Shown here: positions 25,318 through 42,019 of the stretch, piece by piece
How positions within the stretch are numbered: position 1 is the first letter of the stretch
Layout of the letters: the number at the start of each line of letters is the position of its first letter
NCBI GenBank assembly: GCA_965249725.1
Contig: OZ252251.1
Span: 224,001 to 288,000, forward strand
Origin: Longimicrobiales bacterium
GTDB lineage: Bacteria > Gemmatimonadota > Gemmatimonadetes > Longimicrobiales > Gaopeijiaceae
Length of the DNA: 64,000 nucleotides
Direction of reading: 5' to 3'
Program-made: the position numbers and the translations under genes
The notes under the pieces: model-generated
Seen by the model: only the letters and a program-made list of their open reading frames with translations
Database searches by the model: none
What the model was told of the DNA's origin: nothing

Positions 25318-25974
25318 TCAGATCAGGTAGACGATGGTGAAGAGAATGATCCACACCAAGTCCACGAAGTGCCAATAGAGACCTATCACCTCGACGCCCT
25401 GATGATCCTCCTTGGTATATCCTCCACGGAGCGCTTTTACATATACGAAAATCAGGGCGAGTACGCCAAGGGTGACGTGTGCGCCGTGAAAGCCCGTCAT
25501 GGCGTAGAAGGTCGCCCCGTACAGGGGCCCACCGAGCGACGGACCCTCGTGCGGGTTACCGCGGCCCACGGCGTGGTAGGCGTCCACCGCGGGAAGGAAT
25601 CCCTCGCCGGATAGCGCGAGGTACTCGATGGCCTGGATCCCTACGAAAGACGCCCCGATGATGATCGTCGCCAATAGCCAGAGCTTGAGACCCTTCTGGT
25701 CTCCGTGCTCAACGGCCGCGAACGCCTTCACCATCGTCACCGAGGAACAGATCAGGAAGAAGGTGTTCAAGGCGGTGAGGGGCACGTTAAGCACGACTCC
25801 CGGGTCCGCCCAATGCTCGGGATGTGCGAAGCGCAGGATGATGTACGACCCGATCAGCGAAGTGAAGAACATCACCTCGCTGAGCAGGAACACCCACATG
25901 CCCAGTTTCTTGTTGTAGACCTTCATGCCGGGCATGGGCCTACGGTCCATCGTCGCGGTTGCAGCGTGGCTCAC
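25318..25974 (-). CDS. coxC: Cytochrome c oxidase subunit III (second copy)
   Basis: FLLSEVMFF, TGFHGAHV, GLYWHFVDLVW. Confidence 0.95.
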   Translation of the reverse strand: MSHAATATMDRRPMPGMKVYNKKLGMWVFLLSEVMFFTSLIGSYIILRFAHPEHWADPGVVLNVPLTALNTFFLICSSVTMVKAFAAVEHGDQKGLKLWLLATIIIGASFVGIQAIEYLALSGEGFLPAVDAYHAVGRGNPHEGPSLGGPLYGATFYAMTGFHGAHVTLGVLALIFVYVKALRGGYTKEDHQGVEVIGLYWHFVDLVWIILFTIVYLI

Positions 25975-25977
25975 AGG

Positions 25978-27768
25978 TCAGTCTCCTGGCACGGGTTCAA
26001 GCGTGGGCGCTTCGACGCTCTGTCCACCTGAATCACTCGTGGGTGGCGGTTCGTCTTGCGGATAGAAGTCCGACTCCCGACTGGGATCGCTGTACTCGTA
26101 GGGCCCACGGTAGACGATCGGCATCTGCGGGAAATTTCCGTGGGGTGGCGGCGACGGAACGGTCCACTCGAGCGTGGTGCTCTTCCACGGATTATTGCCG
26201 GCCTCCCTGCCCTTCTTCAGGCTCCACAGGAAGTTGAAGGCGAAGATGGCCTGGGCGCCGGCGAAGATGAACATGTTGATGGTGATGAACGTGTTGGTCG
26301 GCTGCAGAGCCTGCAGGAACTCGTACTGGTTGGGGTCGTAGATCCGGCGCATCATCCCTTGGACCCCCAGGTTGTGCATGGGGAAGAACGTCAGGTTGTA
26401 GAAGATGAACGAAAGAACCCAGTGTACCTTGCCCCACCCCTCGTGCATCAGTCGGCCGAACATCTTCGGATACCAGAAGGTGATGCCGGCGAAGAGCCCG
26501 AAAAGGGAGCCGCCCACCAGTACGTAGTGGAGGTGTGCCACGATGAAGTACGTGTCGTGGATGTAGATGTCGACTGGCGCGACGGCCATGAAGATGCCCG
26601 ACAACCCGCCGATGATGAACAACGACACGAAGGAAATGGCGTGAAGGAGAGGCGTATCGATGTGGATGTTCCCTCGCCACAGGGTGCCGAGCCAGTTGAA
26701 CGTCTTGATGGCCGACGGCACGGCGATCACCACCGTGGTCGCCATGAACGTCATTCCCAGCATGGGGTTCATGCCGCTCTGGAACATGTGATGGCCCCAG
26801 ACGATCCACCCCAGGAAGGCGATCGACGCCAGGGCGAGTACCATGGCGTGGTATCCGAAAATAGGCTTCCGTGACCTGCAGGCGATGACGTCGGACACGA
26901 TGCCCATGGCCGGGAGAATCAGGATGTAGACCTCGGGGTGGCCGAAGAACCAGAAAATGTGCTGCCAAAGGAGCGGCTCTCCGCTGCCCTCCAGGCGGAA
27001 GAAGGCCGTGCCGATGGTCTGGTCGAACAGCAGAAGGATCAGTCCGCCGGTCAGGATCGGTACCGCCAGCAGGAGCAACCAGGCCGTGACGAAGAGAGAC
27101 CAGGTCGCCAGGGGAATCCGGAACCAGGTCATCCCCGGAGCCCGCATGTTGATCACGGTGGAGACGTAGTTGATGGCGCCCGTAATGGACGAGAACCCCA
27201 CGATGATGAGGCTGACGAGCCAGAGGATCTGGCCCATGTAGACGCCGGTCCACTCACCCGACGTGCTCAACGGCGCGTAGGACGTCCAACCGGCTCCAGC
27301 CGCTCCGCCTTCAACGAAGAAGCTGGCCAGCATGATCACACCGGCAACCGGGGTGATCCAGAACGACAACATGTTGAGGCGTGGGAACGCCATGTCCTCC
27401 GCGCCGATCTGAAGTGGAATCAGCAAGTTGCCGAAGACGCCCGCCAACATCGGCATGAGCGCGAAGAACACCATGAACGTGGCGTGCATCGTCACCAGCG
27501 AGTTGTAGAACTCGGGGAGAATGATGCCGCCGGGCGCCATGGCTTCGGGTAGGAGGTTGCCCAAGGGCATCGGCTGGCTCGGGAACCCGAGCTGCCAGCG
27601 CACCATTCCCGCCAGAATGCCACCCACCAGCAGGAAGAACAGTGAAAGGAACAGGAACTGCCGCGCGATCATCTTGTGATCGGTAGAGAACACGTAGGTC
27701 TTGATGAATCCGAGGTCGTGGTGCTCCTCGTGACCAGTGTGCGTTTCGGCCGTCGCAGTCGTGCTCAT
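25978..27768 (-). CDS. coxA: Cytochrome c oxidase subunit I, family A1 (second copy)
   Basis: FSTDHK, TMHA, WFFGHPEVY, WGHHMF, HDTYFIVAHLHY; ATGA overlap gives a start at 27768. Confidence 0.96.
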   Translation of the reverse strand: MSTTATAETHTGHEEHHDLGFIKTYVFSTDHKMIARQFLFLSLFFLLVGGILAGMVRWQLGFPSQPMPLGNLLPEAMAPGGIILPEFYNSLVTMHATFMVFFALMPMLAGVFGNLLIPLQIGAEDMAFPRLNMLSFWITPVAGVIMLASFFVEGGAAGAGWTSYAPLSTSGEWTGVYMGQILWLVSLIIVGFSSITGAINYVSTVINMRAPGMTWFRIPLATWSLFVTAWLLLLAVPILTGGLILLLFDQTIGTAFFRLEGSGEPLLWQHIFWFFGHPEVYILILPAMGIVSDVIACRSRKPIFGYHAMVLALASIAFLGWIVWGHHMFQSGMNPMLGMTFMATTVVIAVPSAIKTFNWLGTLWRGNIHIDTPLLHAISFVSLFIIGGLSGIFMAVAPVDIYIHDTYFIVAHLHYVLVGGSLFGLFAGITFWYPKMFGRLMHEGWGKVHWVLSFIFYNLTFFPMHNLGVQGMMRRIYDPNQYEFLQALQPTNTFITINMFIFAGAQAIFAFNFLWSLKKGREAGNNPWKSTTLEWTVPSPPPHGNFPQMPIVYRGPYEYSDPSRESDFYPQDEPPPTSDSGGQSVEAPTLEPVPGD

Positions 27769-28457
27769 CGGTCGTCCTCCCCGGTGGCTTGCTGGCCAGC
27801 GAGCCAGGCTTGGAAGTCGGCCTGCGAATGGACCGTGATCGACCCCTTCATGCGGTAGTGCCCCAGCCCACACAACTCCGCGCAGGCGAGTGTGAACTCA
27901 CCCGTCCGGGTGGCTTCGAACCAGACCGGGGTGTTCATGCCGGGAACGGCGTCCTGCTTTACGCGGAACTCGGGAAGGAAGAAGGAGTGGATCACGTCTT
28001 CCGCTTGGAGATTCACTCGGACCGCTCGATCTACCGGAATGTGAAGTGCGTTCCGGGAGACGAAATCGTCTCCGGTGCCGAGTCGGCCGTCGGCCCCGGG
28101 GTACGTGGCGTTCCACTCGAACTGCTTCGCGAAGACATCGATCTCATAGGCGTCGGCGGGAATGCTCGCCGGATCCCGGATCTCGTCCCAGAGCCCCTTG
28201 GAGTAGATGGCCAGCCCCATCACGATGACGAATGGGGTAATGGTCCAAATGACCTCGGCCTTGTTGCTCCCGTGGATGTAAGCGGCCTTTCGGCCCTCTT
28301 TGTGGCGGTATTTCACCAGAAACACCACCAACGTGATCTCCGTTATGAAGAACACGATGCCCGTAATCCACAGGATCACGTAGTAGAGGTTGTCCAGGGC
28401 CGGTCCGAAAGTGGACACGGTCTCTGGCATGAGCCACGAAAAGTTCATCCGATTCAC
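27765..28457 (-). CDS. coxB: Cytochrome c oxidase subunit II without cytochrome c domain (second copy)
   Basis: Two TMs, KQFEW, CuA ligands HSFF...CAELCGLGHYRM; no CxxCH. Confidence 0.94.
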   Translation of the reverse strand: MNRMNFSWLMPETVSTFGPALDNLYYVILWITGIVFFITEITLVVFLVKYRHKEGRKAAYIHGSNKAEVIWTITPFVIVMGLAIYSKGLWDEIRDPASIPADAYEIDVFAKQFEWNATYPGADGRLGTGDDFVSRNALHIPVDRAVRVNLQAEDVIHSFFLPEFRVKQDAVPGMNTPVWFEATRTGEFTLACAELCGLGHYRMKGSITVHSQADFQAWLAGQQATGEDDR

Positions 28458-28540: not shown

Positions 28541-29389
28541 CTAGTCTTTATCGCCGGCTACCGTGTGATCATGTAGATCCACGGGCTCACCGAGCGGCAC
28601 GACGGCTCCGGCCATCGACGCGCTGAAAGTGAACGTGACCTCGGCGGTCTCGCCGGTGGCCACGGTTACGTTTTGAGTCTGCGTGCCGTAGCGCTCGTGC
28701 CAGGCCTCGACCACGTAGTCACCCGGGGGCAGCGTGGACAGGTCGAAGCTGCCATCCGAGCCGGAAACCGAGTGGTAGGGGTGGGGCAGCACTCCGATGT
28801 AGGCGGTCATCCAGCCGTGAACGTCGCAACGCACCGGAACCATGACCTCGGCCGTACCGAAGCTCCTGGTGCTCTCCATGGTCGTGGGCTGGCTGGTGTT
28901 GAAGCCCCGCTGCTCGGTGGGCGACGCGTTGATGTTGTGCAGCAAGCCATCGCTGTTCCGGATGGTGATGTCCTGGTCGGTCATGACGCCCAATACGTGG
29001 GGCAGATACGTGCAGCCATCCTGGTCGAGCAGGGCCGGGCCGGGCGTCGGAAACTGCAGGCTCTCCAGACCCTCCTTCACATAGACGAACACATTCGCGA
29101 GCATACCGCCGCTCACGGACACTTCCTCGGCCATGGGCGTCGAGGAGTGTTTGTCCGCACACACCTGCTCGGCACCCATGTCGATGGCGTCCATGGCGGG
29201 CGCGTCCCCCTCGAAGACGATAGATCCGGCGATGTTACCGGCCGTAGCTGCGTCCACCGGGTTCTCGACCGAAGCGGCTGCGCCACCCCCTGAGCTGCTA
29301 CCGCCACCGTCACCACCACCACATCCCATGGCCAATAAGGCCACCAGCGCGGGCGTGAACACCCGACGCAGTTCAATTCGATCCGTCAT
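28541..29389 (-). CDS. Lipoprotein with cupredoxin-like and carboxypeptidase-regulatory-like domains
   Basis: Lipobox LAMGC; DQDGC..PHV, LHNIN...CDVHGWM (H/C/H/M copper-type pattern); LPPGDYVVEAWHE. Confidence 0.75.
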   Translation of the reverse strand: MTDRIELRRVFTPALVALLAMGCGGGDGGGSSSGGGAAASVENPVDAATAGNIAGSIVFEGDAPAMDAIDMGAEQVCADKHSSTPMAEEVSVSGGMLANVFVYVKEGLESLQFPTPGPALLDQDGCTYLPHVLGVMTDQDITIRNSDGLLHNINASPTEQRGFNTSQPTTMESTRSFGTAEVMVPVRCDVHGWMTAYIGVLPHPYHSVSGSDGSFDLSTLPPGDYVVEAWHERYGTQTQNVTVATGETAEVTFTFSASMAGAVVPLGEPVDLHDHTVAGDKD

Positions 29390-29430: not shown

Positions 29431-31005
29431 TCAGTCTTCTACGATCTCGCCCTCTTCTTCGCGCTTCTGTGCTCTGCCCACCACGAGGATGCCGAGTCCG
29501 GCCGTGAGCACCATGGCCACGGCCGGGGCGATGTACACCGTGTTGGGTAGAGCGTCTTGGAGGAACAGGAAGTACCAGGAGCTCACGGAACCCTGCGTGC
29601 CTGATTCACCGTTGTCCCCATCCCACGCGAAGAACGCCACGGGTATGGGCTGCCCCGTGACGAAGTCCAGGTCGCCCTCGTCCTCGGTAATCAAAGAGCG
29701 GGTGAACATAACCTGCCACTGGCCGTTCACGTGAGAGGCGTGTAAGCCGAGGTCCTGTCCGTCGGACGGATAGCTCTCCGTACCGAGGCCTCTGGCTTCA
29801 CCCTCCATGGCCGTTCCACGGTCGCTCTGCCATTGCCAGAGATAGACGGGGCGACGGTTGTCACCTCTCATGAAGTACGGTCGGTCCATGCCCTGAGGCA
29901 TCTGCATGGGGAATTGGACGAGGAGCTGATCCGGCGTGGGGCCGGGCTCGCGTGGATCGCCCTCGACGGGGGCCATGAACGAGACGACCTGCGATTTCCA
30001 GTCGGCCCACTCGGGATCCGGGCTCAGGTTGGGGTCGCTCCATCGTACCCGTACTGCGACTTCCTGGCCGTCGTGGATGGCTTGCACCCACACGCCGTCG
30101 ACCCGGGGATCGAACCACCGGGGCTTCACAATGATCTGACCTGCCAGCGGGATGTACGCTGGATCGGCGGAGTCCCACAACGGATCGTCCACGGTGATGG
30201 GGAGCGCCGCGTCCTCCAGGAGCTCGGCCCTCACCACCTCCTCGATCCCCGGGGCTTCTTCGGGAGAGAGGCTGCGCACGTAGTGCGCGAGTGCCCAGAG
30301 CTGGTCGTCCGTGATGACCTCGGCGTCGATCAGGTCCGAGAAGTTGGGCATGGGCGTTCCATCGAGACCCGTCCGGAGGCGGGCATAGATGTCCTCGACG
30401 TCGCCTCCGCCGTTGAACAACCAGTTCTCGGTGAGGTCGGCCGCCCGGACCGGAAAGTCGTTGTCGTCGGCGAGCGTCGGTGAAGACTGTCCCTCGCCTC
30501 GCCCCTGGTCGCCATGACACTTCCAGCACTCGATGGCGTCGTATTGGGCTCTACCTTCCACGAGCACTTCCTCGGACACTTTGGTCGGTTTCCCGAACGC
30601 CAACGCCTCCGGAACCTCGTCCGGCGAAAAGAACCGGGAGAAGGTCTTCAGGTACTGCACCAACGCCTCTCGCTCGTTCTGTGATAGCAGGTCTTCCCAC
30701 CCCGGCATCGTCGTCCCGGGCATCCCCCGATTGATCACTTTCAGCATGTCGTCGTCCGTCGGAAGCTCTCCACTCGCTGTGGTCCGGATCTGGTATAACG
30801 CCTGGCTGAAGTCCCGAGGCCGCGGCAACATGATCGCCGCCCCATCCCCAGCCCCCAGACCGTCCACCCCATGACACCCCGCGCACCACTTCTCATAGGT
30901 GACCTGCCCGAGATCTTCCTGCCCCTCCAACCGCCCCGCCCCCAGCCAGAAAAAAAGGATGAGCACCGATGTGACCGCCACCACCTTGGTGAACCGCCTG
31001 ATCAA
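29431..31005 (-). CDS. Diheme cytochrome c fused to an EB_dh (EbdC/NxrC-like heme b) domain, C-terminal TM anchor
   Basis: CAGCH and CWKCH with PRPRDF and GMPGTTMPGW; C-terminal VRWSDP, NGQWQVMFTRSL, PVAFFAWDG. Start probably TTG 31005; the frame is open to 31176. Confidence 0.8.
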   Translation of the reverse strand: MIRRFTKVVAVTSVLILFFWLGAGRLEGQEDLGQVTYEKWCAGCHGVDGLGAGDGAAIMLPRPRDFSQALYQIRTTASGELPTDDDMLKVINRGMPGTTMPGWEDLLSQNEREALVQYLKTFSRFFSPDEVPEALAFGKPTKVSEEVLVEGRAQYDAIECWKCHGDQGRGEGQSSPTLADDNDFPVRAADLTENWLFNGGGDVEDIYARLRTGLDGTPMPNFSDLIDAEVITDDQLWALAHYVRSLSPEEAPGIEEVVRAELLEDAALPITVDDPLWDSADPAYIPLAGQIIVKPRWFDPRVDGVWVQAIHDGQEVAVRVRWSDPNLSPDPEWADWKSQVVSFMAPVEGDPREPGPTPDQLLVQFPMQMPQGMDRPYFMRGDNRRPVYLWQWQSDRGTAMEGEARGLGTESYPSDGQDLGLHASHVNGQWQVMFTRSLITEDEGDLDFVTGQPIPVAFFAWDGDNGESGTQGSVSSWYFLFLQDALPNTVYIAPAVAMVLTAGLGILVVGRAQKREEEGEIVED

Positions 31006-31175
31006 CGGATCCGTCCCCCGATGTGCTCCAGGGACCGCTGCGGCGTTTCCCTCGGAACGAAGTTCAATCGAAGATTGCTTGAGTGCAGAGGAAAACCCGC
31101 AAAAGGTCCCGACTTCGCGGGACGAGGATCCGACCCACCCGCGCCGCTGCACCAAGTACTCCGCGAAGCGCCCCA

Positions 31176-31973
31176 TCAGTGCTCCTCCCCCCCTTCAGCC
31201 TCTTCCCACGTACGAGGCTCATGCCCAGTCTGCTCATACAAGAACATGATCACCGACCATATCTCGTCCGCGGTGAGAAAGTCCTCCCACGCGGGCATGG
31301 CCGAATTCCAGGGGGCGCCTTCGTTGGGAAGGCCGGGGCCGCCCTTCGCGATCCGCCAGAAGACGAAGCTCTCGGTGAGCTGGGCGATGGTACCGATGTC
31401 CTCGAAGTTCGCCGGGGCCGGGGTGAACGCGGCGGCGTAATGACCCTGCCCGTTCAGCCCGTCGCCATGACAACCGAGGCAGTTCTGATAGTAGACACGC
31501 TTGCCTTCCTCGTAGTGGTCCTCGAGCGAGCCCAAGGAACGCAGAGGGTTCTCCAGCCCTGAAAGCACCATGGTCTCGCCCTGAAAGTCGATCTGTCCGG
31601 GAGGAGCCGGATGGACGGACCGGAGGCCGATCGGGGCCCCCACCGACGGACGAACCCGGTTGTATGTGCCGAAAGCCACCACGAGCGGGATGGCCACCAT
31701 GAACAGCCCGCGAACCGTTTTCCTCCGTGGATCCACCAGGGTCCGGTGGATAGGTGCCTTGAACTCCGTCCAACGCTCTTCGTTGTCGCTGACCCACAGC
31801 AGGATGCCGACCGCGGCGGTCAGCATGTACTGAAATATGACGGAACTGGGGACCGGGGCGCTCGCAATCCCGACCAGGGGCGGGAAGTACACGATGCCGT
31901 AGTTCAAGACCAGATACGACAGGATCATGACCACGGCCGCCTGGCCGAACGGATGCTTGAAATGCTTGCCCAT
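31176..31973 (-). CDS. Membrane-anchored monoheme cytochrome c
   Basis: Three N-terminal TMs; CLGCH; FWRIAKGGPGLP...SAMPAWE. Confidence 0.88.
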   Translation of the reverse strand: MGKHFKHPFGQAAVVMILSYLVLNYGIVYFPPLVGIASAPVPSSVIFQYMLTAAVGILLWVSDNEERWTEFKAPIHRTLVDPRRKTVRGLFMVAIPLVVAFGTYNRVRPSVGAPIGLRSVHPAPPGQIDFQGETMVLSGLENPLRSLGSLEDHYEEGKRVYYQNCLGCHGDGLNGQGHYAAAFTPAPANFEDIGTIAQLTESFVFWRIAKGGPGLPNEGAPWNSAMPAWEDFLTADEIWSVIMFLYEQTGHEPRTWEEAEGGEEH

Positions 31974-31990: not shown

Positions 31991-32788
31991 TTACTGTTGG
32001 CTGGCCAGGAACTGAACGACTGATTCGAGCTGCGCGGCCGTGAGCTGGGTACCGAAGATCTGGGGCATGACCCCGATGAACGCCTCGAAACCGGGAGACG
32101 CGCCGGCCGACGGATTAAGGATCGACTCGCGGATGTAGTCCGCTTGTACACGCCCTCCCATCCCGTCGAAGGGCGGTCCCATCGGTGTGCCCTCACCGTT
32201 GAAGTGATGACATACCAGGCAGGTGTTGGCCCGCATGATCTCGACCGGATCCAAGGACGCTGTCGCCGGAGTGGCGGCGGCGGGAGCCGTGGTCGCAGCA
32301 GGAGTGGCTCCCCCAGCCTCCTCGGTGACGTCCGCACCGGAAACCGTTACCTCACCGCCCTGGGACTGGAGGAACGCTACAAGCGACCAGATCTGCGCAT
32401 TGGACAGGGAGCGTCGCATGTCGGGCATGATGGGGTTGTAACCTTCTACTAGGAACGAGGCCGGGTCTGTCATGGACATGTACAGGTAGGTCTTACAATC
32501 CTCCCCACTCACCCGACCGGCGCAGCGCACGCCGATGGTGCCCGTGCCGCCGTCATCCGTGAGGAGATTCGGGGCTCGCGTGCCCAGCCCATGGCAGGCC
32601 ACACATCCGCCGGCGCCGTTGTAGAGGTTCTCGCCCGAGGAGACCAATTCGGCCTCGGAGACGTTGGCACCGAAAGACAGCTCCTGGGGCACTTCGGACT
32701 GCACCTGTGGGATCGAATTGGCCACGAGGGTGAAGAGCGCAAGAGTCCCGATAACGACTGAGAAGATCCTCAGATTCTCTGCAAGCAT
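31991..32788 (-). CDS. Diheme cytochrome c with N-terminal anchor
   Basis: CVACH and CLVCH, each followed by a distal MP; Ala/Pro/Thr linker. Confidence 0.88.
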   Translation of the reverse strand: MLAENLRIFSVVIGTLALFTLVANSIPQVQSEVPQELSFGANVSEAELVSSGENLYNGAGGCVACHGLGTRAPNLLTDDGGTGTIGVRCAGRVSGEDCKTYLYMSMTDPASFLVEGYNPIMPDMRRSLSNAQIWSLVAFLQSQGGEVTVSGADVTEEAGGATPAATTAPAAATPATASLDPVEIMRANTCLVCHHFNGEGTPMGPPFDGMGGRVQADYIRESILNPSAGASPGFEAFIGVMPQIFGTQLTAAQLESVVQFLASQQ

Positions 32789-32849: not shown

Positions 32850-34658
32850 TCAATCACCCGCTGCCGGCGCGAGTTCGGCACCACCGGGAGCCCCAGCCCC
32901 GACGTTCGACACGATGGGCTTTTCGGCGAGTCCTCCGAGCCAGAAGATAAAGGCCACGAGCGTCAGGAAGATCAGCACACACGCCGAGATTACCACTGAA
33001 GCGTATCCCAGCGCCGGAGTCGCGGCCCACTCGCTGGTGTCCCTCATGACCTCCCAGACGTGCCAGTGCTGCCGGATTCCGCTGCGGGCAAAGCCCATGA
33101 GGCCCATCAGCCAGGTAAAGGTGACGGCGAGAATGAAGAGGGCGTACTGAGACCGAGGCGGCATCTGCCCCCAACGGATCTCGCCCCGGGACTCGGCACC
33201 TCGGGCCAGGAGCACGTCGATAATGACGACACCGAAGATCGTTACCAGAACCGCCAGCACCTGATAAACGGAGAATCCGATCCGCACGATGGCGCTGACG
33301 AAGTATCCGTAGATTCCGTAGAAGATCACGATCCCGGCCGAGATCACGAACAACGCCGCCTGAATCATGGTGCCTGTCTTGGCCCAACTCACCGTCGGCC
33401 GGATGTTCGCGCGCCGATACAGGAGGAAGGACAGGAACGTGGTCAGGATCATGATGTTCACAGCCGTATTCTTGGCGCTCATGACTCCCAGGACACCCAA
33501 GAACGGGTGGTTGGTACCGCCCATGGCGGCGATCTCTTCTCGGTTGGCGATCATGGTGTGCGGCGTCGCCCATACCATCACGCCGATCACAAGTACCACC
33601 AGCATGTACTTGGTATACGGCGTGAAGCGCTCTGCCCCTGGAATCCGGCCCATTCCCACCCACAGGTAGTAGTTACCGGTCAGGAAGAGCACGCCGATGA
33701 GGAAGGCCTGGATGATCCAAAGCCAACTCATGAAGCCGCCCATCATGGTGATGCCCATCTGCTGGTTGAACTCGTAGATCTCGCGTCCCAGGTAGTAACC
33801 GGCGAACGGTAGGACGATGAGCGCTCCGATGGCGATCAGGTTGCCGACGTAGCCCATCCAGTCGTAGTGGGCGCGTTCCTCGTCGGTCGTGGCCAAAAGG
33901 AAGCGGTACGCGGCGTAAGCGCCCACGATCGCCCCGCCGAAGACCACGTTGGCGATGATCCGGTGGATATTGATCGGCATCCAGGTGGCGTTGGCGAAAG
34001 CACTCCAGAACTGAACCATAGCAGGCGCCGTGTCGGGGCCGACGTCGGCGGGTGGGCTCATCATGTACGTCAGCCAAGAGTTGGCGATCAACATGACGAT
34101 CGTGCCCCAGACGTTGAGCAGGATACCCAGGGTCCAGTGGCCGAGCTTGGCCCGTCCCTTCTTCCAGCGATCCCAGCCGTAGTAGTAGAGGTAGAGCGTA
34201 AAGGACTCGAGGAAAAAGAGCCCGACGTAGACCCACATCGAGTACTCGAAAACCTCAGCCAAATAGATCCAGAGTCTCGGATAGAGCGTGACGAGCAGGA
34301 ACGACAGGATCGCTCCCCAAATTGCCGTCGCGGAGTACGCAACCAGGAGGAGCCGCGTGAATTCCTTGGCCAGCTTGTCGTACTTCTCGTGTCCGCCGAA
34401 GATTCCGATGGCCTCCGCGACCACCGCGAACATCGGGACTCCCAGCACGAATGCGGCGAAGAGAAGGTGCACCTGCGCCGCGACCCAAACCGCGACGCGA
34501 CTCCCGACCAGGGGGAAGTCACCGTACTCCCGCATCGCAACGTCCTGTGCCCATGCGACGTCCGGGAAGATCTGGAAGGCCAGGGTCACCAGGCCGAAGG
34601 CTCCCAGGAGCTTCAAAGTCGTTCCACCGCGCCGAGCCGTCGGCTCCCGTCGACTCAT
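32850..34658 (-). CDS. Cytochrome bd oxidase subunit I-like (CydA-like) membrane protein
   Basis: AQVHLLFAAFVLG, FFLESFTLYLYYYGW, ANSWLTYMMSP, NIHRIIAN, ARSGIRQHWHV; no cydB adjacent. Confidence 0.85.
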   Translation of the reverse strand: MSRREPTARRGGTTLKLLGAFGLVTLAFQIFPDVAWAQDVAMREYGDFPLVGSRVAVWVAAQVHLLFAAFVLGVPMFAVVAEAIGIFGGHEKYDKLAKEFTRLLLVAYSATAIWGAILSFLLVTLYPRLWIYLAEVFEYSMWVYVGLFFLESFTLYLYYYGWDRWKKGRAKLGHWTLGILLNVWGTIVMLIANSWLTYMMSPPADVGPDTAPAMVQFWSAFANATWMPINIHRIIANVVFGGAIVGAYAAYRFLLATTDEERAHYDWMGYVGNLIAIGALIVLPFAGYYLGREIYEFNQQMGITMMGGFMSWLWIIQAFLIGVLFLTGNYYLWVGMGRIPGAERFTPYTKYMLVVLVIGVMVWATPHTMIANREEIAAMGGTNHPFLGVLGVMSAKNTAVNIMILTTFLSFLLYRRANIRPTVSWAKTGTMIQAALFVISAGIVIFYGIYGYFVSAIVRIGFSVYQVLAVLVTIFGVVIIDVLLARGAESRGEIRWGQMPPRSQYALFILAVTFTWLMGLMGFARSGIRQHWHVWEVMRDTSEWAATPALGYASVVISACVLIFLTLVAFIFWLGGLAEKPIVSNVGAGAPGGAELAPAAGD

Positions 34659-34696
34659 CACGGTTCCTTTCTCGTCCACCGGTTTGGGGCGCGGAA

Positions 34697-36034
34697 TCAA
34701 GCCGACCCTCCTCGTCCGAGGAAGAACGGCAATTTCTTCGAGAAGTCCACGGGGAGGCTGTTACGCACCTCTTCCATGACTTCGATATCTACGCTGGAGT
34801 AGCCCCTCTCGAGGGCGAATTTCTCGACGCGGGCCGTGACCACTCCCCGCACGAAGCTCGGGACCTTGTCCAACCGAGCACGGGCCTCTGGGGACCACGA
34901 CAGCCCTGACGTGGCCGCCTGACCGTATGCCACGGTCTTTCGCGGGGCCACCAGCGGCACATCACCCGTGGGGTCGTACAGGCAGGAGTCGTCCGGGCCC
35001 AGGAAGTCTCCCCCGTCGGCGTAAGCCCGCGCGCGGCAGCCACCGCACACCTCTCGGTACTCGCACCGACCACAACGCCCGGAGAGCTGGCCCGACCGAA
35101 GGTCGGTGAAGACCTCGGAAGTCTGCCAGGTCGTGCGGAAACTGTCGGTCATCAGGTCTCCGGCCACCACGGGCATGTAGGGGCAAGGCGTCACCTTGCC
35201 CTCCGGCGTTATACGCACGTAGTGAACGCCACACGGGCAGCGGGTCTCGTAGTTCAGCAACGGAGAGTCCGGATCGCCCTGGAGGACGTGGCGCATGAGC
35301 TGCGGCTGACACTTGGAGCGGATCATCATCCGGCCCCGGTAGGTCTGTTCGAGCTCGACCAACTCCTTGAGGACCTCGTCATTCTCCGCCGGGGTCATGC
35401 CCTTCATCAACTCAGCCCGACCCGTCGGGACGACGAAATAGACGTTGAACGAAACGGCGCCGGCGGTGGCGGACCATTCCGCCAAATCGGCGATTTCCTG
35501 CCGATTTCCCGTGGTCACTGTCGTCTGAATGACGAAATCGAGTTTGCGGTCCGCACATCGTGCGACGGCTGCCATGGTATCGGTCAGCGCGCCGCCGCCG
35601 TGGCGGAAGCGATCGTGGTATTCGGACCTGAGCGAGTCGATGCTGACTGCGACACCCTTGACTCCGGCGGTCATCAGCGAGTCGATGCGTTCCTCCGTCA
35701 ACCCGGTGCCATTGGTTCCGACGACCACGGTGGCGCCCCTCGAGGACGCTCGCTCGGCGATCGCCTCGAGATCGTCGCGCACCAGAGGCTCCCCACCCGT
35801 CAGGATGAGCATCGGGTTGGGGTTCACGTCGAGAATCTCGTCCAGGACGCGGAAGCACTCTTCGGTCGAGAGCTCTTCGGAGGCCAGGTGCCACGACCCG
35901 GCGGAGATGTAGCAGTGGGCGCACTCGAGGTTGCACCGCTTGGTCAGATTCCACGCAACGACGTGCGGCACATAACTCTCGCCGGAGCGCTCACTTCGAG
36001 TCTCTCCCCGCTCGGTGGGAACCGGAGGCGTCAT
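34697..36034 (-). CDS. Radical SAM/SPASM protein (AhbD/NirJ-like) with C-terminal PCP_red-like domain
   Basis: WNLTKRCNLECAHCY, LTGGEPL, CPCG...TPCPY, CGRCEYREVCGGCRARA; tail WSPEARARLDKVPSFVRG. Confidence 0.88.
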   Translation of the reverse strand: MTPPVPTERGETRSERSGESYVPHVVAWNLTKRCNLECAHCYISAGSWHLASEELSTEECFRVLDEILDVNPNPMLILTGGEPLVRDDLEAIAERASSRGATVVVGTNGTGLTEERIDSLMTAGVKGVAVSIDSLRSEYHDRFRHGGGALTDTMAAVARCADRKLDFVIQTTVTTGNRQEIADLAEWSATAGAVSFNVYFVVPTGRAELMKGMTPAENDEVLKELVELEQTYRGRMMIRSKCQPQLMRHVLQGDPDSPLLNYETRCPCGVHYVRITPEGKVTPCPYMPVVAGDLMTDSFRTTWQTSEVFTDLRSGQLSGRCGRCEYREVCGGCRARAYADGGDFLGPDDSCLYDPTGDVPLVAPRKTVAYGQAATSGLSWSPEARARLDKVPSFVRGVVTARVEKFALERGYSSVDIEVMEEVRNSLPVDFSKKLPFFLGRGGSA

Positions 36035-36069
36035 GGTCGCCGCTGAGGGGGTCTGGTCGAGACTTCGGA

Positions 36070-38202
36070 TCACGCTTTGCCGGTCTCTTTGTTCATGAAC
36101 TGCTCGACCGCGGCCTTGGCGTCCTCGGGAGAGACGGTCTTGAAGTCCACGGGACACTCGTCGGCCGCCTCCGCCACATCACGGATGGGGCAGCGCGTCA
36201 CGCCGCTGGCCTTGGCCTCTTCGATGAACTTCCGCATTTCAGGCGTGATGCCGTCCACTCCCTCCGCCTCGGCCCTGATCTGTTTGGTCTGTAGCTCGCG
36301 GAACATCACCAGCATGGTGTCCATGTCGAACTCGTCCGCCTCGATCATGGCCTGCTTGTTCTCGTCCATAACGGGGGTCGTCACTCGCCAGATGTCATGC
36401 TCACGAGCGAAGCGCTCCACTGTGTTCCGGGCCAAGGGCCGCGCGATGAGTGGAACGGCCTTGAGTCGCTCGAAGGCTTCCTGGGTCCACTGGACGGGGT
36501 CCTTGGCTTCGCGCTCGCGGTTCTCGATGTGGCCGGTGTACGGGCATTTCACCGATACCATGGGCGCCTCCGGCACCGGATCGGCGTCCAAGCCCTCTAT
36601 CACCGTGCGCTTCATCGCCTCATCGGCCTTCACCTCGGCCAGGGCGAGCTCCTCGGCAGTGCCGATCCCCATGATCAACTGCATATGTGTGGGGAGCAGC
36701 TTCTGAATGGCCTCGTCCAGCCGGGAGCTGGTCACCATCGGGAGGCCGTCGGCTCCGAGAGGCGGCACCGCTGTGCCGCTCACCCCGTTCGTGACACCCG
36801 CCTCGTTCGCGTCGGCTCCGTCGGATCCGGCGCCGTTCGGGGTGATGCCATTCGCCGGGCGGATCGAATCCTCGCGGTAGGTTCCGTTGGCGCCCGGTCC
36901 GTAGTTGTCCAGCACGTACTCTTCGACTGCCTTGCGTGCTATGCCGAGCGCGAAGCTCGGTACCCGCAGAATCCGGACTTCGGCGTCGGGGGACCACTCC
37001 AGTCCGGTCTCACCGTCCTCTTCGATCCACGGGATGTCGTCGGGGCGCACGTCCTGGGTCCCCACCAAGAGGATGTTGCTGGGAGCCAGGCGGCAGAGAT
37101 TGTCCGACTGCGAGCCCATGTCGGTGCCCTCGACCCGGTGCCCGCCGTGGCGCGCCAACACCACCAGGCTCGGCTCGAGCTCCTCTATCCACTGGAGAAT
37201 GCACTGGAATGGCTTCCCGATGAGGATCTGGGTCTCGACCTCGACATCGGGGAACTCGTCCGCCATCACCTGCGCTCGCTTGAGGTTCGCCTGAGCGAGC
37301 TTCAAAAGACCCTTGTCGATGATGTTGTTATGGAGCTCTTCCTGCTCCTCGAACTTGAACACCTTCGAGGCCTGGACCGAGAGGATGTCCTTGATGTTTC
37401 CGAACACGGCGTGGTGGTATTCCACGTCGAAGGCCGAACACACGTGGAGCTTGGCTCCGAACTCCCTCGCCATCTCGAGAGCCAGACGCATGGCCTTATA
37501 GGCATACGAGGATCCATCGACGCAGATGATCCAGTTCCCGTTGGCCAAGGCCTTGTCGTCGCGCACGATCAGGGTGTCCTTCTCGACCCCGCGGATCACG
37601 CGGGAGATCATGCCACCGAGCTGGGAATAGGGCTGCTTACCGATGCCATGAGCACCGATGACCAACAGGTCGTACTTGCGGCCGCTCGAGCCGGCGAGCT
37701 TCTCGTCGTGCTCTTCGTCCTCCGCGATGATTCGTCCGTCTTCATCGATGGCCACGTCGCTCCGAACCTTGTCACCGCCGTCATACTTGTCGGCGATATT
37801 CGGATCGAAGCCGATCAGGCTCGGTAGCTGCCCGTGGCCGGCGTTGGCCTCGCGGATGATCTCCTCGTAGTGAATTCCCTCAAGGAGCTGCCTGGTGAGG
37901 GTGACTCCGGCGGCGTCACATGCCTTCGACGTTTGGTCGAGGAACGAGTCGGAGATGAGCTGAAGCCCCTTCTCGATCAGCTTGTCGTGGATCTTGCGTT
38001 GCCGCTTGATCTCTTCGGCGCTCTGGAATTGAGCTGGAAGGCCGGTTTCGAGTTGCCGAAAGCGCACGTCGTGCAGACGAGCTGCATAGACATGGTTGCC
38101 GGTAATCTGTCCGTCTGAGTGGGAACAGAATTCGATGGCCCGGTCCACGGCCCAATGCGAATGCTCGGAATTGTCTACAGGTACGAAGATTTCACGGTAC
38201 AT
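36070..38202 (-). CDS. Double universal-stress-protein (USP) domain protein with two PCP_red-like domains
   Basis: IFVPVDNSEHS..A, LLVIGAHG, CVDGSSYA..A, LVVLARHG; then WSPDAEVRILRVPSFA and WTQEAFERLKAVPLIAR; GAGG RBS before ATG 38202. Confidence 0.85.
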   Translation of the reverse strand: MYREIFVPVDNSEHSHWAVDRAIEFCSHSDGQITGNHVYAARLHDVRFRQLETGLPAQFQSAEEIKRQRKIHDKLIEKGLQLISDSFLDQTSKACDAAGVTLTRQLLEGIHYEEIIREANAGHGQLPSLIGFDPNIADKYDGGDKVRSDVAIDEDGRIIAEDEEHDEKLAGSSGRKYDLLVIGAHGIGKQPYSQLGGMISRVIRGVEKDTLIVRDDKALANGNWIICVDGSSYAYKAMRLALEMAREFGAKLHVCSAFDVEYHHAVFGNIKDILSVQASKVFKFEEQEELHNNIIDKGLLKLAQANLKRAQVMADEFPDVEVETQILIGKPFQCILQWIEELEPSLVVLARHGGHRVEGTDMGSQSDNLCRLAPSNILLVGTQDVRPDDIPWIEEDGETGLEWSPDAEVRILRVPSFALGIARKAVEEYVLDNYGPGANGTYREDSIRPANGITPNGAGSDGADANEAGVTNGVSGTAVPPLGADGLPMVTSSRLDEAIQKLLPTHMQLIMGIGTAEELALAEVKADEAMKRTVIEGLDADPVPEAPMVSVKCPYTGHIENREREAKDPVQWTQEAFERLKAVPLIARPLARNTVERFAREHDIWRVTTPVMDENKQAMIEADEFDMDTMLVMFRELQTKQIRAEAEGVDGITPEMRKFIEEAKASGVTRCPIRDVAEAADECPVDFKTVSPEDAKAAVEQFMNKETGKA

Positions 38203-38597
38203 AAACACCTCGGGCACAGCCCATTAGCCAAACGCCTTCGCTCTGGTGGCGGCACCACGCCTTCCTCTCGAAGACATCTGGAGAATCCACTCTTCCCCCC
38301 CAAATGGGAGAGCGGATCATCGATCCAGGCCGAACTTCACCAGCTAGACCTCAGGCGCTCGGCGACGATTATCGTTGCCACAGCCTATAGGTATAAGGGG
38401 CCGGCGGCGCCGAACCCCGTAAACGAGGATTCAAGTCCTCGTAGACCTCGTATTATGCCCTTGTACCGTGTGTCCCGCGAGCCTCTGTCCTTCCCCTCCG
38501 AGGCCCGAGAGATGGTCCTACCGCCACTTGTCCGCGACGGGATCAATCGGGGCGTGCTATCCCGCCCCGGAGAAAATCACGGATCCTGCCGGGGGCC

Positions 38598-38627
38598 AGT
38601 ATACCCGGTCCTTCTGAGAACTGTCAA
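38598..38627 (-). promoter_or_regulatory. Near-consensus sigma70 promoter for the USP-to-oxidase operon
   Basis: TTGACA-N18-TATACT on the minus strand. Confidence 0.65.
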
Positions 38628-38682
38628 TAAACCCAAAGGGCCGTCTGGGCTGCGTCGGAAACGCCCATATTAAAGACGGAAA

Positions 38683-40343: not shown

Positions 40344-40345
40344 GC

Positions 40346-40855
40346 CTACATCTCCTCCAAGCCCAGCTCGGTCCGGGCCCGGTTCATGGTGTCGGGCGTC
40401 ATCTCGGCCACCCCGTTCTCCTTGGCCCAGTCGATGTAGATCCGCTTCACCATGCCCCGTACGAAGCTCGGGACCTTCTCCAGGCGCTCCTTCGCTTCTG
40501 GGCTCCACCCGACCGATTGGCCGGGTTGCAGGGTCGGCTCGACTTCCGGGGATTGCTCGCCTCCCGCGGATTGCTCGGACGGCTGCCTGGGGATGTCTCC
40601 CGAGATATCGAAAGCCTCTTCTCTTCCACCCTCCAGAGACGTGCGCACCATTTCCATGGGCTGCGTGGGAACCCCCCGACCGCCGATCTTCACACCCAAG
40701 CTCGATACGAGCTGCGTCTCCATCGGGTTCGTGAGCATCGCCACTTCCCGACCGCAGGAGCCGCAGCTGAAAACCGCGGTGAGCGTGCCGTCGCCGGGAA
40801 GCTGTCGCTCGGCGAAATCCATTACGTCGTCACATTCGAGACAGAGGAACTTCAT
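40346..40855 (-). CDS. Zn-ribbon (CxxC...CxxC) plus PCP_red-like domain protein
   Basis: MKFLCLEC...FSCGSC..MLTNPMETQLVSSLGVKIGG; C-terminal WSPEAKERLEKVPSFVRGMV. Confidence 0.8.
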   Translation of the reverse strand: MKFLCLECDDVMDFAERQLPGDGTLTAVFSCGSCGREVAMLTNPMETQLVSSLGVKIGGRGVPTQPMEMVRTSLEGGREEAFDISGDIPRQPSEQSAGGEQSPEVEPTLQPGQSVGWSPEAKERLEKVPSFVRGMVKRIYIDWAKENGVAEMTPDTMNRARTELGLEEM

Positions 40856-41751: not shown

Positions 41752-41773
41752 CGGATCGGTAGCAATCGTCGGA

Positions 41774-42019
41774 CTAGGGGACGAGCTGGGTGCCCTCCCC
41801 ATCAAGGGCCACGAGCGCGTCGACCGGACAGGATGAGCAGGCATCCAGCAGCGCCTCTTTGTCCACGTCCGGATTGCCCTCCTTGAAGACGGCGATGCCC
41901 TCGTCATCGAACTCGAACACATCAGGGGTCACGTCAATACAGTCGCCGAATCCTACGCAGAGATCTCGCTCGATCTTGATCGTGAGACCGGACAGAGGGC
42001 GCTCGGAAATATTGCTCAA
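41774..42019 (-). CDS. Ferredoxin (probably [3Fe-4S])
   Basis: CVGFGDC...PDVF...CPVDAL; second Cys position is F. Start uncertain. Confidence 0.85.
   Translation of the reverse strand: MSNISERPLSGLTIKIERDLCVGFGDCIDVTPDVFEFDDEGIAVFKEGNPDVDKEALLDACSSCPVDALVALDGEGTQLVP

Follow-up and report, generated by a model that had tools for sequence, protein, structure and literature searches.

The gene at positions 32850..34700 of the window (the whole 64,000-nucleotide stretch of Longimicrobiales DNA analysed here) encodes a 13-helix CydA homologue of the bd-like, or OR-N, type, in which four helices take the place of the quinol loop and onto which a neighbouring cytochrome c, cytc_B, is predicted to dock. 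Judged from sequence and models, there is a somewhat better than even chance (roughly 55%) that it is the haem-bearing catalytic subunit of an O2 reductase fed by cytochrome c and not by quinol. The protein is a new Gemmatimonadota member of a published, biochemically uncharacterised family; no purified or assayed member of that family was found in the literature. Its gene belongs to a four-gene module that is conserved across many phyla, as surveyed in 80 related loci carrying at least 13 phylum labels. The module and its downstream neighbours are as follows.

32850..34700, minus strand: CydA-like (bd-like, OR-N type) subunit gene, identified by Pfam, PDB sequence searches and the structural model
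31991..32788, minus strand: cytc_A, a membrane-anchored dihaem cytochrome c with one TM helix and two CxxCH motifs (75 of 80 loci)
31176..31973, minus strand: cytc_B, a monohaem cytochrome c with N-terminal membrane helices (72 of 80 loci)
29431..31176, minus strand: dihaem cytochrome c with an EB_dh/DMSO-reductase-gamma-like haem b domain and a C-terminal anchor (68 of 80 loci)
28541..29389, minus strand: CarboxypepD_reg-like beta-sandwich protein with a C-x2-H-x2-M motif (26 of 80 loci)
25318..28457, minus strand: aa3-type haem-copper oxidase genes, directly downstream, from profile matches
27765-28457, minus strand: CoxII
25978-27873, minus strand: CoxI
25318-25974, minus strand: CoxIII

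The module contains five CxxCH sites in all, none of them in the CydA-like protein. The product of 29431..31176 (581 aa) is a periplasmic cytochrome b of the 'alternative NxrC'-like kind. Most loci that lacked a module member were at contig ends. A paralogue of the CydA-like protein (50% identity) is encoded 360 kb away in a module of its own, which is also adjoined by a CarboxypepD_reg-like gene; there is no second CydA-like gene in the window operon. A PDB sequence search with the CarboxypepD_reg-like protein returned weak beta-sandwich matches only and did not establish a cupredoxin identity or a copper site.

The CydA-like open reading frame spans 616 aa if read from a TTG at 34700, or 602 aa from an ATG at 34658 (minus strand); residue numbers such as H78, S540 and Y158 refer to the 616-aa form. 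It matched Pfam Cyt_bd_oxida_I (PF01654) at 73.2 bits (cut-off 26.2), with ORF residues 67-588 aligned to profile positions 2-407 of 418. An AlphaFold model (pLDDT 85.5, pTM 0.85) could be superposed end to end on E. coli CydA (6rx4_A) with a Z of 34.0 and an rmsd of 3.9 Å over 354 residues, model residues 42-585 corresponding to 3-515 of the chain. Ten CydA structure entries gave Z values of 30.9-34.0 (339-359 residues aligned, model 40-585), and the top 10 Foldseek matches were all CydA (E 7e-8 to 2.6e-5). By the Pfam score and the superposition, the protein that the first-pass annotation called CydA-like is a real CydA homologue with the CydA fold.

The topology consists of a signal-like N-terminal helix and 13 membrane helices. 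The model contains no long periplasmic loop that could be the Q-loop: no non-helical segment on the periplasmic side exceeds 29 residues (364-392 in the 602-aa form), and four extra membrane helices lie between the equivalents of TM6 and TM7. Neither profile nor structure comparison yielded equivalents of K252 and E257. The by-eye reading that no Q-loop K252/E257 motif is visible was thereby borne out by a model with four helices where the loop would be, and the structure-guided alignment that had been proposed as its check recovered neither the Q-loop nor E445. CydB (PF02322) gave no match in the organism's own genome (95.8% complete), the control search being positive in 9 of 14 genomes. The further proposal that this is not a standard quinol oxidase is supported by the absence of the Q-loop, of K252/E257 and of CydB, and by cytochromes c being conserved and sometimes fused partners.

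The register of the N-terminal half was obtained by phmmer against PDB chains, by the family profile against the PDB and by hhalign, with E. coli CydA residue identities taken from the K-12 gene itself, and all three agreed. In hhalign, a 31-sequence family alignment matched E. coli K-12 CydA with a probability of 96% (E 4.6e-9; query 54-258, CydA 9-212). H78 (QVHLL), E165 (FFLES) and H246 (NIHR) corresponded in each alignment to H19, E107 and H186 of E. coli CydA, the equivalents that had been picked out by eye. The same three alignments placed Tyr158 at the E99 position, a point absent from the first-pass annotation, as are the missing CydB and the conservation of all these states in the family.

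In the C-terminal half, the alignment of SGIRQHW with EYGRQPW was not significant by sequence (domain scores -5 to +1.6 bits). Because the same register repeats with three different CydA chains and the model superposes end to end, the best reading is that S540 would be the equivalent of E445, R543 of R448 and W546 of W451; the serine reported earlier at the E445 position thus survives, on a weak sequence alignment backed by the superposition. A local hhalign of residues 256-602 against E. coli CydA 213-522 (probability 0.4%, E 0.16) was used only as a hint that helices 11-13 are the counterparts of TM7-9. E99 and E445 are located at the high-spin haems of canonical bd, and M393 is a ligand of haem b558. 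The M393 position is Gly in the non-significant local alignment, and M407, M532, M535 and H398 are conserved candidates for its role. In canonical enzymes haem b558 has His and Met ligands and the in-plane haem has His plus Glu (bd review PMC8951039).

Conservation was counted in an alignment of 104 relatives. The S540 position was occupied by Ser in 90, Ala in eight and Glu in two. The conserved core comprised H78 (102), E96 (102), Y158 (101), E165 (96), H188 (103) and H246 (102) in the N-terminal half, and M407 (96), K410 (102), R543 (99), W546 (96) and H547 (98) beyond it. The family thus retains the H19 ligand, E107 and, on the cytoplasmic side of helices 1-4, the polar residues, and His19 on helix 1 is described by Murali et al. 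as retained by every paralogue (bioRxiv 10.1101/2021.01.16.426971). Two carboxylates of the di-haem site are replaced family-wide, E99 by Tyr and E445 by Ser, the latter with the near-invariant His547 adjacent; Supplementary Table 6 of the same preprint, which gives conserved residues per OR-N subfamily, may already record these states. The other proposal of the first-pass annotation, that O2 is not reduced or that the haem set or chemistry differs, may or may not hold: the replaced carboxylates and a co-inherited haem-type radical SAM enzyme would fit it, while the retained H19 ligand, E107 and polar residues would speak against it.

As the odd features are family traits, with Ser540 in 90 of 104 relatives, the protein is not a new kind of enzyme. 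The novelty implied by the first-pass annotation could not be sustained: bd-like oxidases without a Q-loop were already described by Lucker et al. 2013 (PMC3578206), and Murali, Gennis and Hemp 2021 (bioRxiv 10.1101/2021.01.16.426971) gave them the name OR-N. In the 14-helix Nitrospina and Nitrospira proteins, Lucker et al. report an alignable N-terminal part with the haem b ligands kept, membrane helices replacing the Q-loop, and all quinol-binding residues missing. Murali et al. give 14 membrane helices for OR-N1 and OR-N2 and 10 for N3-N5. The window protein shares with OR-N1 and OR-N2 (including Nitrospira NIDE0901-like proteins and Ca. Manganitrophus TO_1) CydA helices 1-4 with the H19 ligand, the lack of a quinol site, about 14 helices, a subunit free of haem c motifs and the absence of CydB, as well as an operon with alternative donors (cytochromes c and a periplasmic cytochrome b), which here comprises three cytochrome c genes. 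It differs from them in its Gemmatimonadota host, its aa3 oxidase operon and the single CydA-like gene of that operon. The OR-N assignment is made by these described traits and, indirectly, by a homologue with the same module in a Nitrospirales MAG (L078; 51% identity), and N1, N2 or a further clade are all possible.

The same four kinds of gene occur in Nitrospira moscoviensis, where bd-like_3 (14 helices) is grouped with alt_NxrC_2, an NxrC/EB_dh-like cytochrome b of ~62 kDa, and two membrane-bound cytochromes c, and where this cluster ranks within the 40 most highly transcribed genes (PMC6606698). A cluster of the bd-like_3 type is also described as conserved in Nitrospina and anammox bacteria (PMC6606698; PMC3578206). 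In contrast to the nitrite-oxidiser and anammox cluster, the window genome contains no NarG/NxrA-type enzyme over cut-off (TIGR01580 best 24 bits against 1084), and none is found in the window; a role as NXR anchor therefore cannot apply here. At least 594 species genomes from many non-nitrifying phyla contain CydA-like relatives, as do 41 of 151 sampled Gemmatimonadota. Among the close relatives are proteins from MAGs labelled anammox (L044) and Thermodesulfobacteriota (L023).

With canonical CydAB(X) (E. coli bd-I 6RKO/6RX4; G. thermodenitrificans 5DOQ) the protein shares the CydA fold end to end (Z 31-34) and equivalents of H19, E107, H186, R448 and W451; it departs from it in lacking the Q-loop with K252 and E257, in the E99 to Tyr and E445 to Ser replacements, With OR-C1, a CydA with C-terminal haem c domains, the family has in common cytochrome c as presumed donor and some relatives fused to cytochrome c (P0122, P0124 and P0135), whereas the window protein itself has no CxxCH; OR-C proteins have eight helices and are paired with a second CydA-like subunit (Murali et al. 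2021, bioRxiv 10.1101/2021.01.16.426971).

Natural gene fusions and complex prediction both support cytochrome c as the partner, putatively docked on the helices that replace the Q-loop. Relative P0122 (889 aa) is a fusion of a CydA-like protein with cytc_A at its C-terminus (residues 619-884 align with cytc_A 2-263, E 2e-38), two further representatives (P0124, P0135) have one C-terminal CxxCH each, and one or two CxxCH motifs were present in 4 of 29 CydA-like representatives. In L021 and L044, cytc_B is fused to the EB_dh subunit. Prediction of the CydA-like protein with cytc_B gave an ipSAE of 0.73 (0.72-0.73 in three runs), the best of three controls giving 0.00; of 157 solved complexes 116 attain this value, as do 2 of 215 mismatched pairs, counts that are only roughly valid here because custom alignments were used and four haems were included. 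At least 63% of contacts agreed between runs, and partner pLDDT was at least 77. The predicted interface pairs the inserted helices and a conserved periplasmic loop (residues 304-387, 602-aa form) with cytc_B residues 27-68 and 115-123, which would seat cytc_B on helices 7-8. The literature view of bd-like proteins is that they are putative cytochrome c-dependent O2 reductases, and OR-N enzymes are stated to 'likely use cytochrome c', with experimental confirmation lacking (PMC10839748).

In such an O2 reductase, electrons would pass from periplasmic donors through the dihaem-c/EB_dh cytochrome b and both membrane cytochromes c to the His246-ligated haem, and from there to a di-haem site on helices 1-4 (His78). 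O2 would be reduced at the di-haem site with cytoplasmic protons conducted past the conserved E96, E113, K185, H188 and E165, and a membrane potential would be built as in canonical bd. Because the carboxylates that are axial or distal in canonical bd are exchanged (E99 for Tyr158, E445 for Ser540, with His547 seven residues on), the high-spin haems would be ligated differently from those of E. coli bd and might also be of another kind. The Gemmatimonadota module may have electron carriers in common with the co-operonic aa3 oxidase. Several observations were counted against an O2 reductase: an aa3 oxidase is already next door, the di-haem carboxylates are replaced, no M393 equivalent was found, and relatives occur in anammox- and Thermodesulfobacteriota-labelled MAGs, where a dedicated O2 reductase is less expected.

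It is also conceivable, though unlikely, that the module is not a terminal oxidase at all and instead transfers electrons across the membrane between the periplasmic cytochrome c pool and the quinone pool, in either direction: like ACIII feeding the adjacent aa3 oxidase, or in reverse electron flow as proposed for nitrite oxidisers. Such a role was put forward for the same cluster by Lucker 2013 (PMC3578206) and Mundinger 2019 (PMC6606698), and relatives in MAGs labelled as anaerobes are consistent with it. The loss of the Q-loop would not strictly exclude quinol use; quinone can bind bd oxidases away from that loop, and in M. tuberculosis bd menaquinone is found near haem b595 instead (review PMC8951039). 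In 15-16 of 16 Gemmatimonadota loci the module is followed directly by coxII-coxI-coxIII, a genomic place adjoining aa3 oxidase that ActC shares. ACIII genes often sit likewise upstream of aa3 oxidase genes. The second-best structural matches of the model were to the NrfD-type proteins of ACIII and polysulfide reductase, the quinol-interacting ActC (Z 18.7-19.8) and PsrC (Z 15.2), at Z 15-20 over 234-317 residues. This likeness is far weaker than that to CydA, is accompanied by no sequence match, and may reflect only a shared layout of two four-helix bundles; NrfD proteins are not known to bind haem. Quinone-site residues could not be identified in the window protein, and the H19 ligand and the cytoplasm-side polar residues of helices 1-4 are conserved, as for a proton-consuming site. 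Elsewhere the genome has two NrfD-type genes and one cytochrome b gene. Enzymes of the complex III type are thus probably present, and the module was not retained as a candidate for the sole quinol:cytochrome c oxidoreductase of the genome.

It is distinctly improbable that another small oxidant, such as NO or H2O2, is reduced at a di-haem site with non-canonical ligands, in detoxification or anaerobic respiration. With the conserved replacements (E99 to Tyr, E445 to Ser/His547), chemistry at the active site could be different; NO and peroxide are handled even by canonical bd; and the relatives in MAGs labelled as anaerobes would fit. However, the sequence points to no particular alternative substrate, the Gemmatimonadota module is tied to an aerobic oxidase operon, and the genome has no NarG/NxrA-type enzyme over cut-off. 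That the by-eye alignment simply missed the Q-loop and E445 of an ordinary, quinol-oxidising CydA, as would suit the labels 'cytochrome bd-type quinol oxidase subunit 1' and 'cytochrome bd ubiquinol oxidase subunit I' that public pipelines give close relatives and other proteins of this kind, is refuted, within what sequence and fold can tell, by the profile and structure comparisons (no Q-loop, Ser at the E445 position), by the genome's lack of CydB and by a score of 30 bits against a cut-off of 968 for the NCBIfam equivalog of ubiquinol oxidase subunit I.

Genes that may bear on the kind of haem lie upstream of the module and are as follows.

34697..36157, minus strand: AhbD/NirJ2-clade radical SAM/SPASM enzyme carrying a PCP_red domain (DPOR subunit B tail) at its C-terminus; the gene ends at the start of the CydA-like ORF
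36070..38217, minus strand: universal-stress-protein domains fused to PCP_red domains, 715 aa (53 of 80 loci)
40346..40855, minus strand: small PCP_red-domain protein, 169 aa
40852..41922, minus strand: NUBPL/Mrp-type P-loop NTPase (Pfam ParA PF10609, 226 bits)

The radical SAM enzyme scored 278 bits for NirJ2 and 269 bits for AhbD, both below cut-offs of 500, and the universal-stress-protein fusion had no match among PDB sequences. In 49 of 49 positive genomes from two phyla, PCP_red-domain proteins and a radical SAM enzyme of the AhbD/NirJ-like kind are inherited together with the bd-like family, and the PCP_red proteins track the bd-like gene and not haem synthesis in general. This co-inheritance hints at a dedicated haem maturation. 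A role for the radical SAM enzyme as the genome's haem b synthase was set aside, given a ChdC gene (184 bits) elsewhere and the tracking of the bd-like gene by PCP_red. In the literature outside subscription journals, no paper linking bd-like oxidases with radical SAM and heme was found, and no relevant literature on PF08369/PCP_red. A speculative extension, which we consider rather unlikely, is that, in place of plain haem b or d, the bd-like complex is supplied with a purpose-made tetrapyrrole such as a reduced haem of the chlorin type. The cofactor would be made or inserted by a co-inherited set resembling a stripped-down protochlorophyllide-reductase system: the radical SAM enzyme with its DPOR subunit B substrate-lid tail, two further PCP_red proteins and an Fe-S-bridging NUBPL-type ATPase. 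The protein would then have adapted to it through the family-wide carboxylate swaps (Tyr for E99; Ser for E445, with His547).

In Nitrospira and Nitrospina, the main terminal oxidase is thought to belong to the bd-like family. Handles on the old question of what bd-like proteins do are offered by the docking site predicted for cytochrome c, by the natural fusions and by the strict radical SAM/PCP_red co-inheritance. A survey of 326 Gemmatimonadota genomes reports a 'cytochrome bd oxidase' in 53%, read as a quinol oxidase (PMC9426454). Some of these calls are probably of the type without CydB and without a quinol loop, and, if they are reassigned, the respiratory chains of those Gemmatimonadota would have to be drawn differently.

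The CydA-like gene is followed on the same strand by a run of closely spaced genes, with intergenic gaps of 61, 17, -1, 41 and 83 bases:

34697-41922, minus strand: accessory gene set, upstream of the CydA-like gene (counterpart at L058:13775-19544, in an Acidobacteriota locus)
32850-34700, minus strand: CydA-like ORF, 616 aa (602 aa from the ATG at 34658)
31991-32788, minus strand: cytc_A, first downstream, membrane-anchored dihaem cytochrome c
31176-31973, minus strand: cytc_B, second downstream, monohaem cytochrome c with N-terminal membrane helices
29431-31176, minus strand: EB_dh subunit, third downstream, dihaem cytochrome c with a fused EB_dh/DMSO-reductase-gamma-type haem b domain and a C-terminal anchor
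28541-29389, minus strand: CarboxypepD_reg-like protein, fourth downstream
after the CarboxypepD_reg-like gene, minus strand: coxII, coxI and coxIII

Alignments used the 602-aa form of the CydA-like protein, on which helix, loop and interface ranges are numbered; lettered residues follow the 616-aa form (602-aa number plus 14). The ORF matched the Pfam family Cyt_bd_oxida_I at 73.2 bits (cut-off 26.2) over residues 67-588. Hydropathy and an AlphaFold model (pLDDT 85.5, pTM 0.85, 31-sequence alignment) gave 13 membrane helices after a signal-like helix at the N-terminus (ending AWA-QD); this N-terminus and the positive-inside loop pattern are both consistent with CydA topology. The ten best Foldseek matches to the model were CydA chains (E 7e-8 to 2.6e-5), and ten CydA entries were superposed on it by VIA-align with Z of 30.9-34.0 over 339-359 residues. 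As model residues 42-585 superposed on residues 3-515 of E. coli chain 6rx4_A in VIA-align, the modelled protein is a whole CydA core with additional internal helices and not a fragment. The next-best structural matches after CydA were the NrfD-type ActC of alternative complex III (Z 18.7-19.8) and PsrC (Z 15.2).

The register of helices 1-5 was determined using phmmer against PDB chains, the family profile against PDB, and hhalign against E. coli K-12 CydA (probability 96%, E 4.6e-9, query 54-258 on CydA 9-212), with E. coli residue identities taken from the K-12 gene itself. All three methods agreed on a single register, which places H78, E165 and H246 at H19, E107 and H186, the three equivalents recognized by eye in the first-pass annotation. 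Tyr158 occupied the E99 position (E101 in G. thermodenitrificans) in all three alignments, and between the two glutamate positions there is one residue fewer, a deletion that Murali et al. (2021) describe for OR-C and OR-N. The C-terminal motif RSGIRQHWH aligned to (A)EYGRQPW with sequence scores that were not significant; however, the same register recurred with three CydA chains and the structural superposition extended to the last helix, covering the motif region, so the best reading is that S540 corresponds to E445, R543 to R448 and W546 to W451. The loss of the E445 glutamate and of the Q-loop, both proposed from the sequence alone, is borne out: neither was recovered in comparisons with CydA profiles and structures. 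No long periplasmic loop is seen in the model, where residues 364-392 form the longest periplasmic stretch, and four helices, at approximately 310-453, occupy the Q-loop site. No match to CydB (PF02322) was obtained in the organism's own genome (95.8% complete); as a control, CydB was found in nine of 14 reference genomes.

These unusual residue states are, from their conservation, family traits. An alignment of 104 relatives was assembled from the window protein, its paralogue, 29 full-length representatives and 73 of 80 genome loci, seven loci being excluded for incomplete coverage or internal stops. The residues kept were H78 (in 102), E96 (102), Y158 (101), E165 (96), H188 (103), H246 (102), E389 (100), H398 (97), M407 (96), K410 (102), M532 (98), M535 (95), R539 (101), R543 (99), W546 (96) and H547 (98), while position 540 was Ser in 90, Ala in eight and Glu in two; in a closer set of 54 sequences most such residues were invariant. 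The aligned sequences therefore give the family a signature of its own, R-S-G-x-R-Q-H-W-H instead of E-x-G-R-Q-P-W. His547, which is near-invariant, is an obvious candidate for a haem ligand substituting for the lost glutamate.

Relatives are widespread. In the representative library 1190 clusters matched at E <= 1e-3, 235 of them at E <= 1e-30, and a relative was encoded in at least 594 of at least 614 pattern matches (one genome per species). The best 80 of these (at least 594) came from MAGs labelled Gemmatimonadota, Acidobacteriota, NC10, Myxococcota, Thermodesulfobacteriota, Rhodothermales, Calditrichia, Latescibacterota, Acidimicrobiia, Nitrospirales and others, including one anammox bacterium. 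In a FastTree phylogeny of 105 rows the window protein fell within a Gemmatimonadota clade (16 rows, support 100) that adjoins NC10 and Thermodesulfobacteriota rows.

Proteins of this kind have been described previously. The bd-like oxidase of Nitrospina, Nitrospira and Kuenenia is reported to have 14 helices, an N-terminal part alignable to CydA, conserved haem b ligands, and membrane helices in place of the Q-loop, with all quinol-binding residues absent (Lucker et al. 2013, PMC3578206). Murali, Gennis and Hemp (2021, bioRxiv) define OR-N by the lack of a quinol site and by operons with alternative donors; they assign 14 helices to OR-N1 and OR-N2, often find no second CydA-like gene with OR-N2, and describe His19 as retained in every paralogue. 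A cluster of bd-like_3, two membrane-bound cytochromes c and alt_NxrC_2 is described as conserved in Nitrospina and anammox bacteria and as among the top 40 transcribed genes of N. moscoviensis (Mundinger et al. 2019, PMC6606698), and TO_1 of Ca. Manganitrophus includes a periplasmic cytochrome b (PMC9040806). OR-N proteins are referred to as putative cytochrome c-oxidising O2 reductases, experimentally unconfirmed (PMC10839748, PMC12342949), and no biochemical or structural study of any member was found in the open-access literature. The published 14-helix, Q-loop-less descriptions make the window gene a further member of an already described, biochemically uncharacterised kind. It differs from the published clusters in its Gemmatimonadota host phylum, its junction with an aa3 oxidase and a genome without a NarG/NxrA-type enzyme (best match 24 bits, cut-off 1084), the last of which rules out a role for the module as an NXR anchor in this organism.

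The downstream genes accompany the CydA-like gene in most relatives. In the best 80 of at least 594 loci, the genes found downstream were cytc_A (75 loci), cytc_B (72) and the EB_dh subunit (68), and the majority of the missing genes are accounted for by contig ends. Cox genes come next in 15-16 of the 16 Gemmatimonadota loci but seldom elsewhere, the total being 23-24 of 80. In the CarboxypepD_reg-like protein, a C-D-V-H-G-W-M motif together with an upstream His resembles a type-1 copper site; a cupredoxin match was not obtained for this protein. A second module lies 360 kb away in the same genome, outside the window (G000:C1:617482-623841; L003:7482-13841). It comprises a preceding CarboxypepD_reg-like homologue, a CydA-like gene (676 aa, 50% identical, motif SGLRENWH), two cytochromes c and a dihaem-c/EB_dh gene, with no accessory or cox genes beside it, and its CydA-like protein falls in a different FastTree clade with an anammox MAG. 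In the Acidobacteriota locus (L058:5017-8788), a 1041-aa 4Fe-4S dicluster protein and a monohaem cytochrome c precede the CydA-like gene, a layout reminiscent of ActB in alternative complex III, the CydA-like gene taking the place expected for an NrfD-type subunit.

Natural fusions provide sequence evidence that the neighbours are subunits. P0122, a library representative of 889 aa, fuses a CydA-like protein to cytc_A (residues 619-884 on cytc_A 2-263, E 2e-38); P0124 and P0135 each carry a single C-terminal CxxCH and P0161 an N-terminal one, i.e., four of 29 representatives bear CxxCH or are fused to cytochrome c. Cytc_B and the EB_dh subunit form a single ORF in an NC10 MAG (L021:11500-13683, 727 aa) and an anammox MAG (L044:5823-8096, 757 aa).

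A complex of CydA-like residues 43-590, cytc_B and four haems was also predicted. Each protein chain was supplied as a 54-row alignment, using 53 of 70 loci with a complete cytc_B ORF; nine were excluded by hand (four near-duplicates, both fusions and three others), another two for want of a full-length CydA-like ORF and six for a stop or over-long ORF. The pair scored 0.73 (runs 0.72, 0.73 and 0.73), and the best of three controls 0.00; this mark is reached by 116 of 157 solved complexes and two of 215 mismatched pairs, a calibration that is rough here given the custom alignments and small molecules. The runs shared at least 63% of contacts, with partner pLDDT of at least 77. We know of no solved CydA-cytochrome c complex, so the score seems unlikely to echo a structure on which the prediction tool was trained. 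The model supports binding of cytc_B, short of demonstrating it. The confident predicted interface comprises CydA-like residues 304-387 (inserted helices 7-8 and a conserved loop with T365, P366, E375, H384 and P385), 500-502 and 530-531, and cytc_B residues 27-68 (membrane helix) and 115-123. The latter segment, predicted to contact the conserved periplasmic loop, contains the invariant R118-x-x-H121-P122 in the linker joining the membrane helices to the haem domain, and H121 could be a haem ligand supplied in trans.

The most likely reading is that the complex is a cytochrome c-fed oxidase (probability roughly 0.55). In this scheme the c haems and the EB_dh haem b would donate electrons to the His246 haem, which would hand them on to a di-haem site on helices 1-4, with cytoplasmic protons delivered via the conserved E96, E113, K185, H188 and E165. 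Against this stand the replacement of two haem-site carboxylates, the failure to find an M393 equivalent in the protein, and the occurrence of relatives in MAGs labelled as anaerobes. The main rival, a quinone-linked electron-transfer module, draws on the location upstream of the cox genes and the weaker likeness of the model to ActC and PsrC (Z 15-20), but such a module is unnecessary in a genome that carries two NrfD-type genes and a cytochrome b gene at other sites, and it is considered unlikely. The first-pass inference that this is not a standard O2-reducing quinol oxidase, with probably different haems or chemistry, is upheld in part: its observations on the residues and Q-loop stand, and oxidation of cytochrome c is the interpretation now favoured.

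Immediately upstream of the CydA-like gene are an AhbD/NirJ2-clade radical SAM/SPASM enzyme and a USP-PCP_red protein, and farther upstream a small PCP_red protein and a NUBPL-type ATPase. The radical SAM enzyme scored 278 bits for NirJ2 and 269 bits for AhbD (each below the cut-off of 500), and its C-terminal tail matches the end of protochlorophyllide reductase subunit B over some 60 residues (2xdq_B, E 7e-7). Between the accessory genes are two ABC-2 transporter genes, for an ATPase and a permease (38683-40508, minus strand); tblastn places the pair here in seven of 16 Gemmatimonadota loci and none of 64 others. As listed, the ATPase ORF shares 163 bases with the small PCP_red ORF; its actual start is therefore probably further downstream.

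Across phyla, the accessory set and the bd-like module are inherited together. In loci from Acidobacteriota and further phyla the set sits downstream of the module with an added GNAT gene, which is found outside Gemmatimonadota. Among 27 non-Gemmatimonadota loci with full 9-kb flanks, USP-PCP_red was present in 21, the PCP_red tail in 22, GNAT in 16, NUBPL in 13 and the radical SAM core in 11, many of the last being cut by the flank limit under the 50% query coverage rule. In three non-phototroph genomes, every PCP_red domain lies within the accessory clusters (four of four matches in the own genome, four of four in an Acidobacteriota genome and five of five in an NC10 genome). The bd-like subfamily occurred in eight of 151 sampled Acidobacteriota genomes and PCP_red in the same eight plus one (Fisher p 1.6e-12, overstated because kin are not independent); PCP_red was absent from the two with canonical CydA alone (88 bits). 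All 41 subfamily-bearing genomes among 151 Gemmatimonadota had PCP_red, as did five that lack the subfamily; four of these five had strong matches (one or two each), with frames of 569-656 aa for three of them and of 143 aa for the other, which we infer to be BchB of phototrophs. Since ChdC is present elsewhere in the own genome, ordinary haem b can be made without the radical SAM enzyme. The radical SAM/PCP_red genes are read as a dedicated maturation set, which may supply or insert a special tetrapyrrole; this would correspond to the first-pass suggestion of a different haem set.

Nothing was found in the open-access literature on an association between bd-like proteins and radical SAM/PCP_red genes. 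The predicted cytochrome c docking site and the co-inherited, haem-type radical SAM/PCP_red set add some interest to the finding. If the predicted interface is right, the helices that replace the Q-loop would be the docking site of the electron donor.
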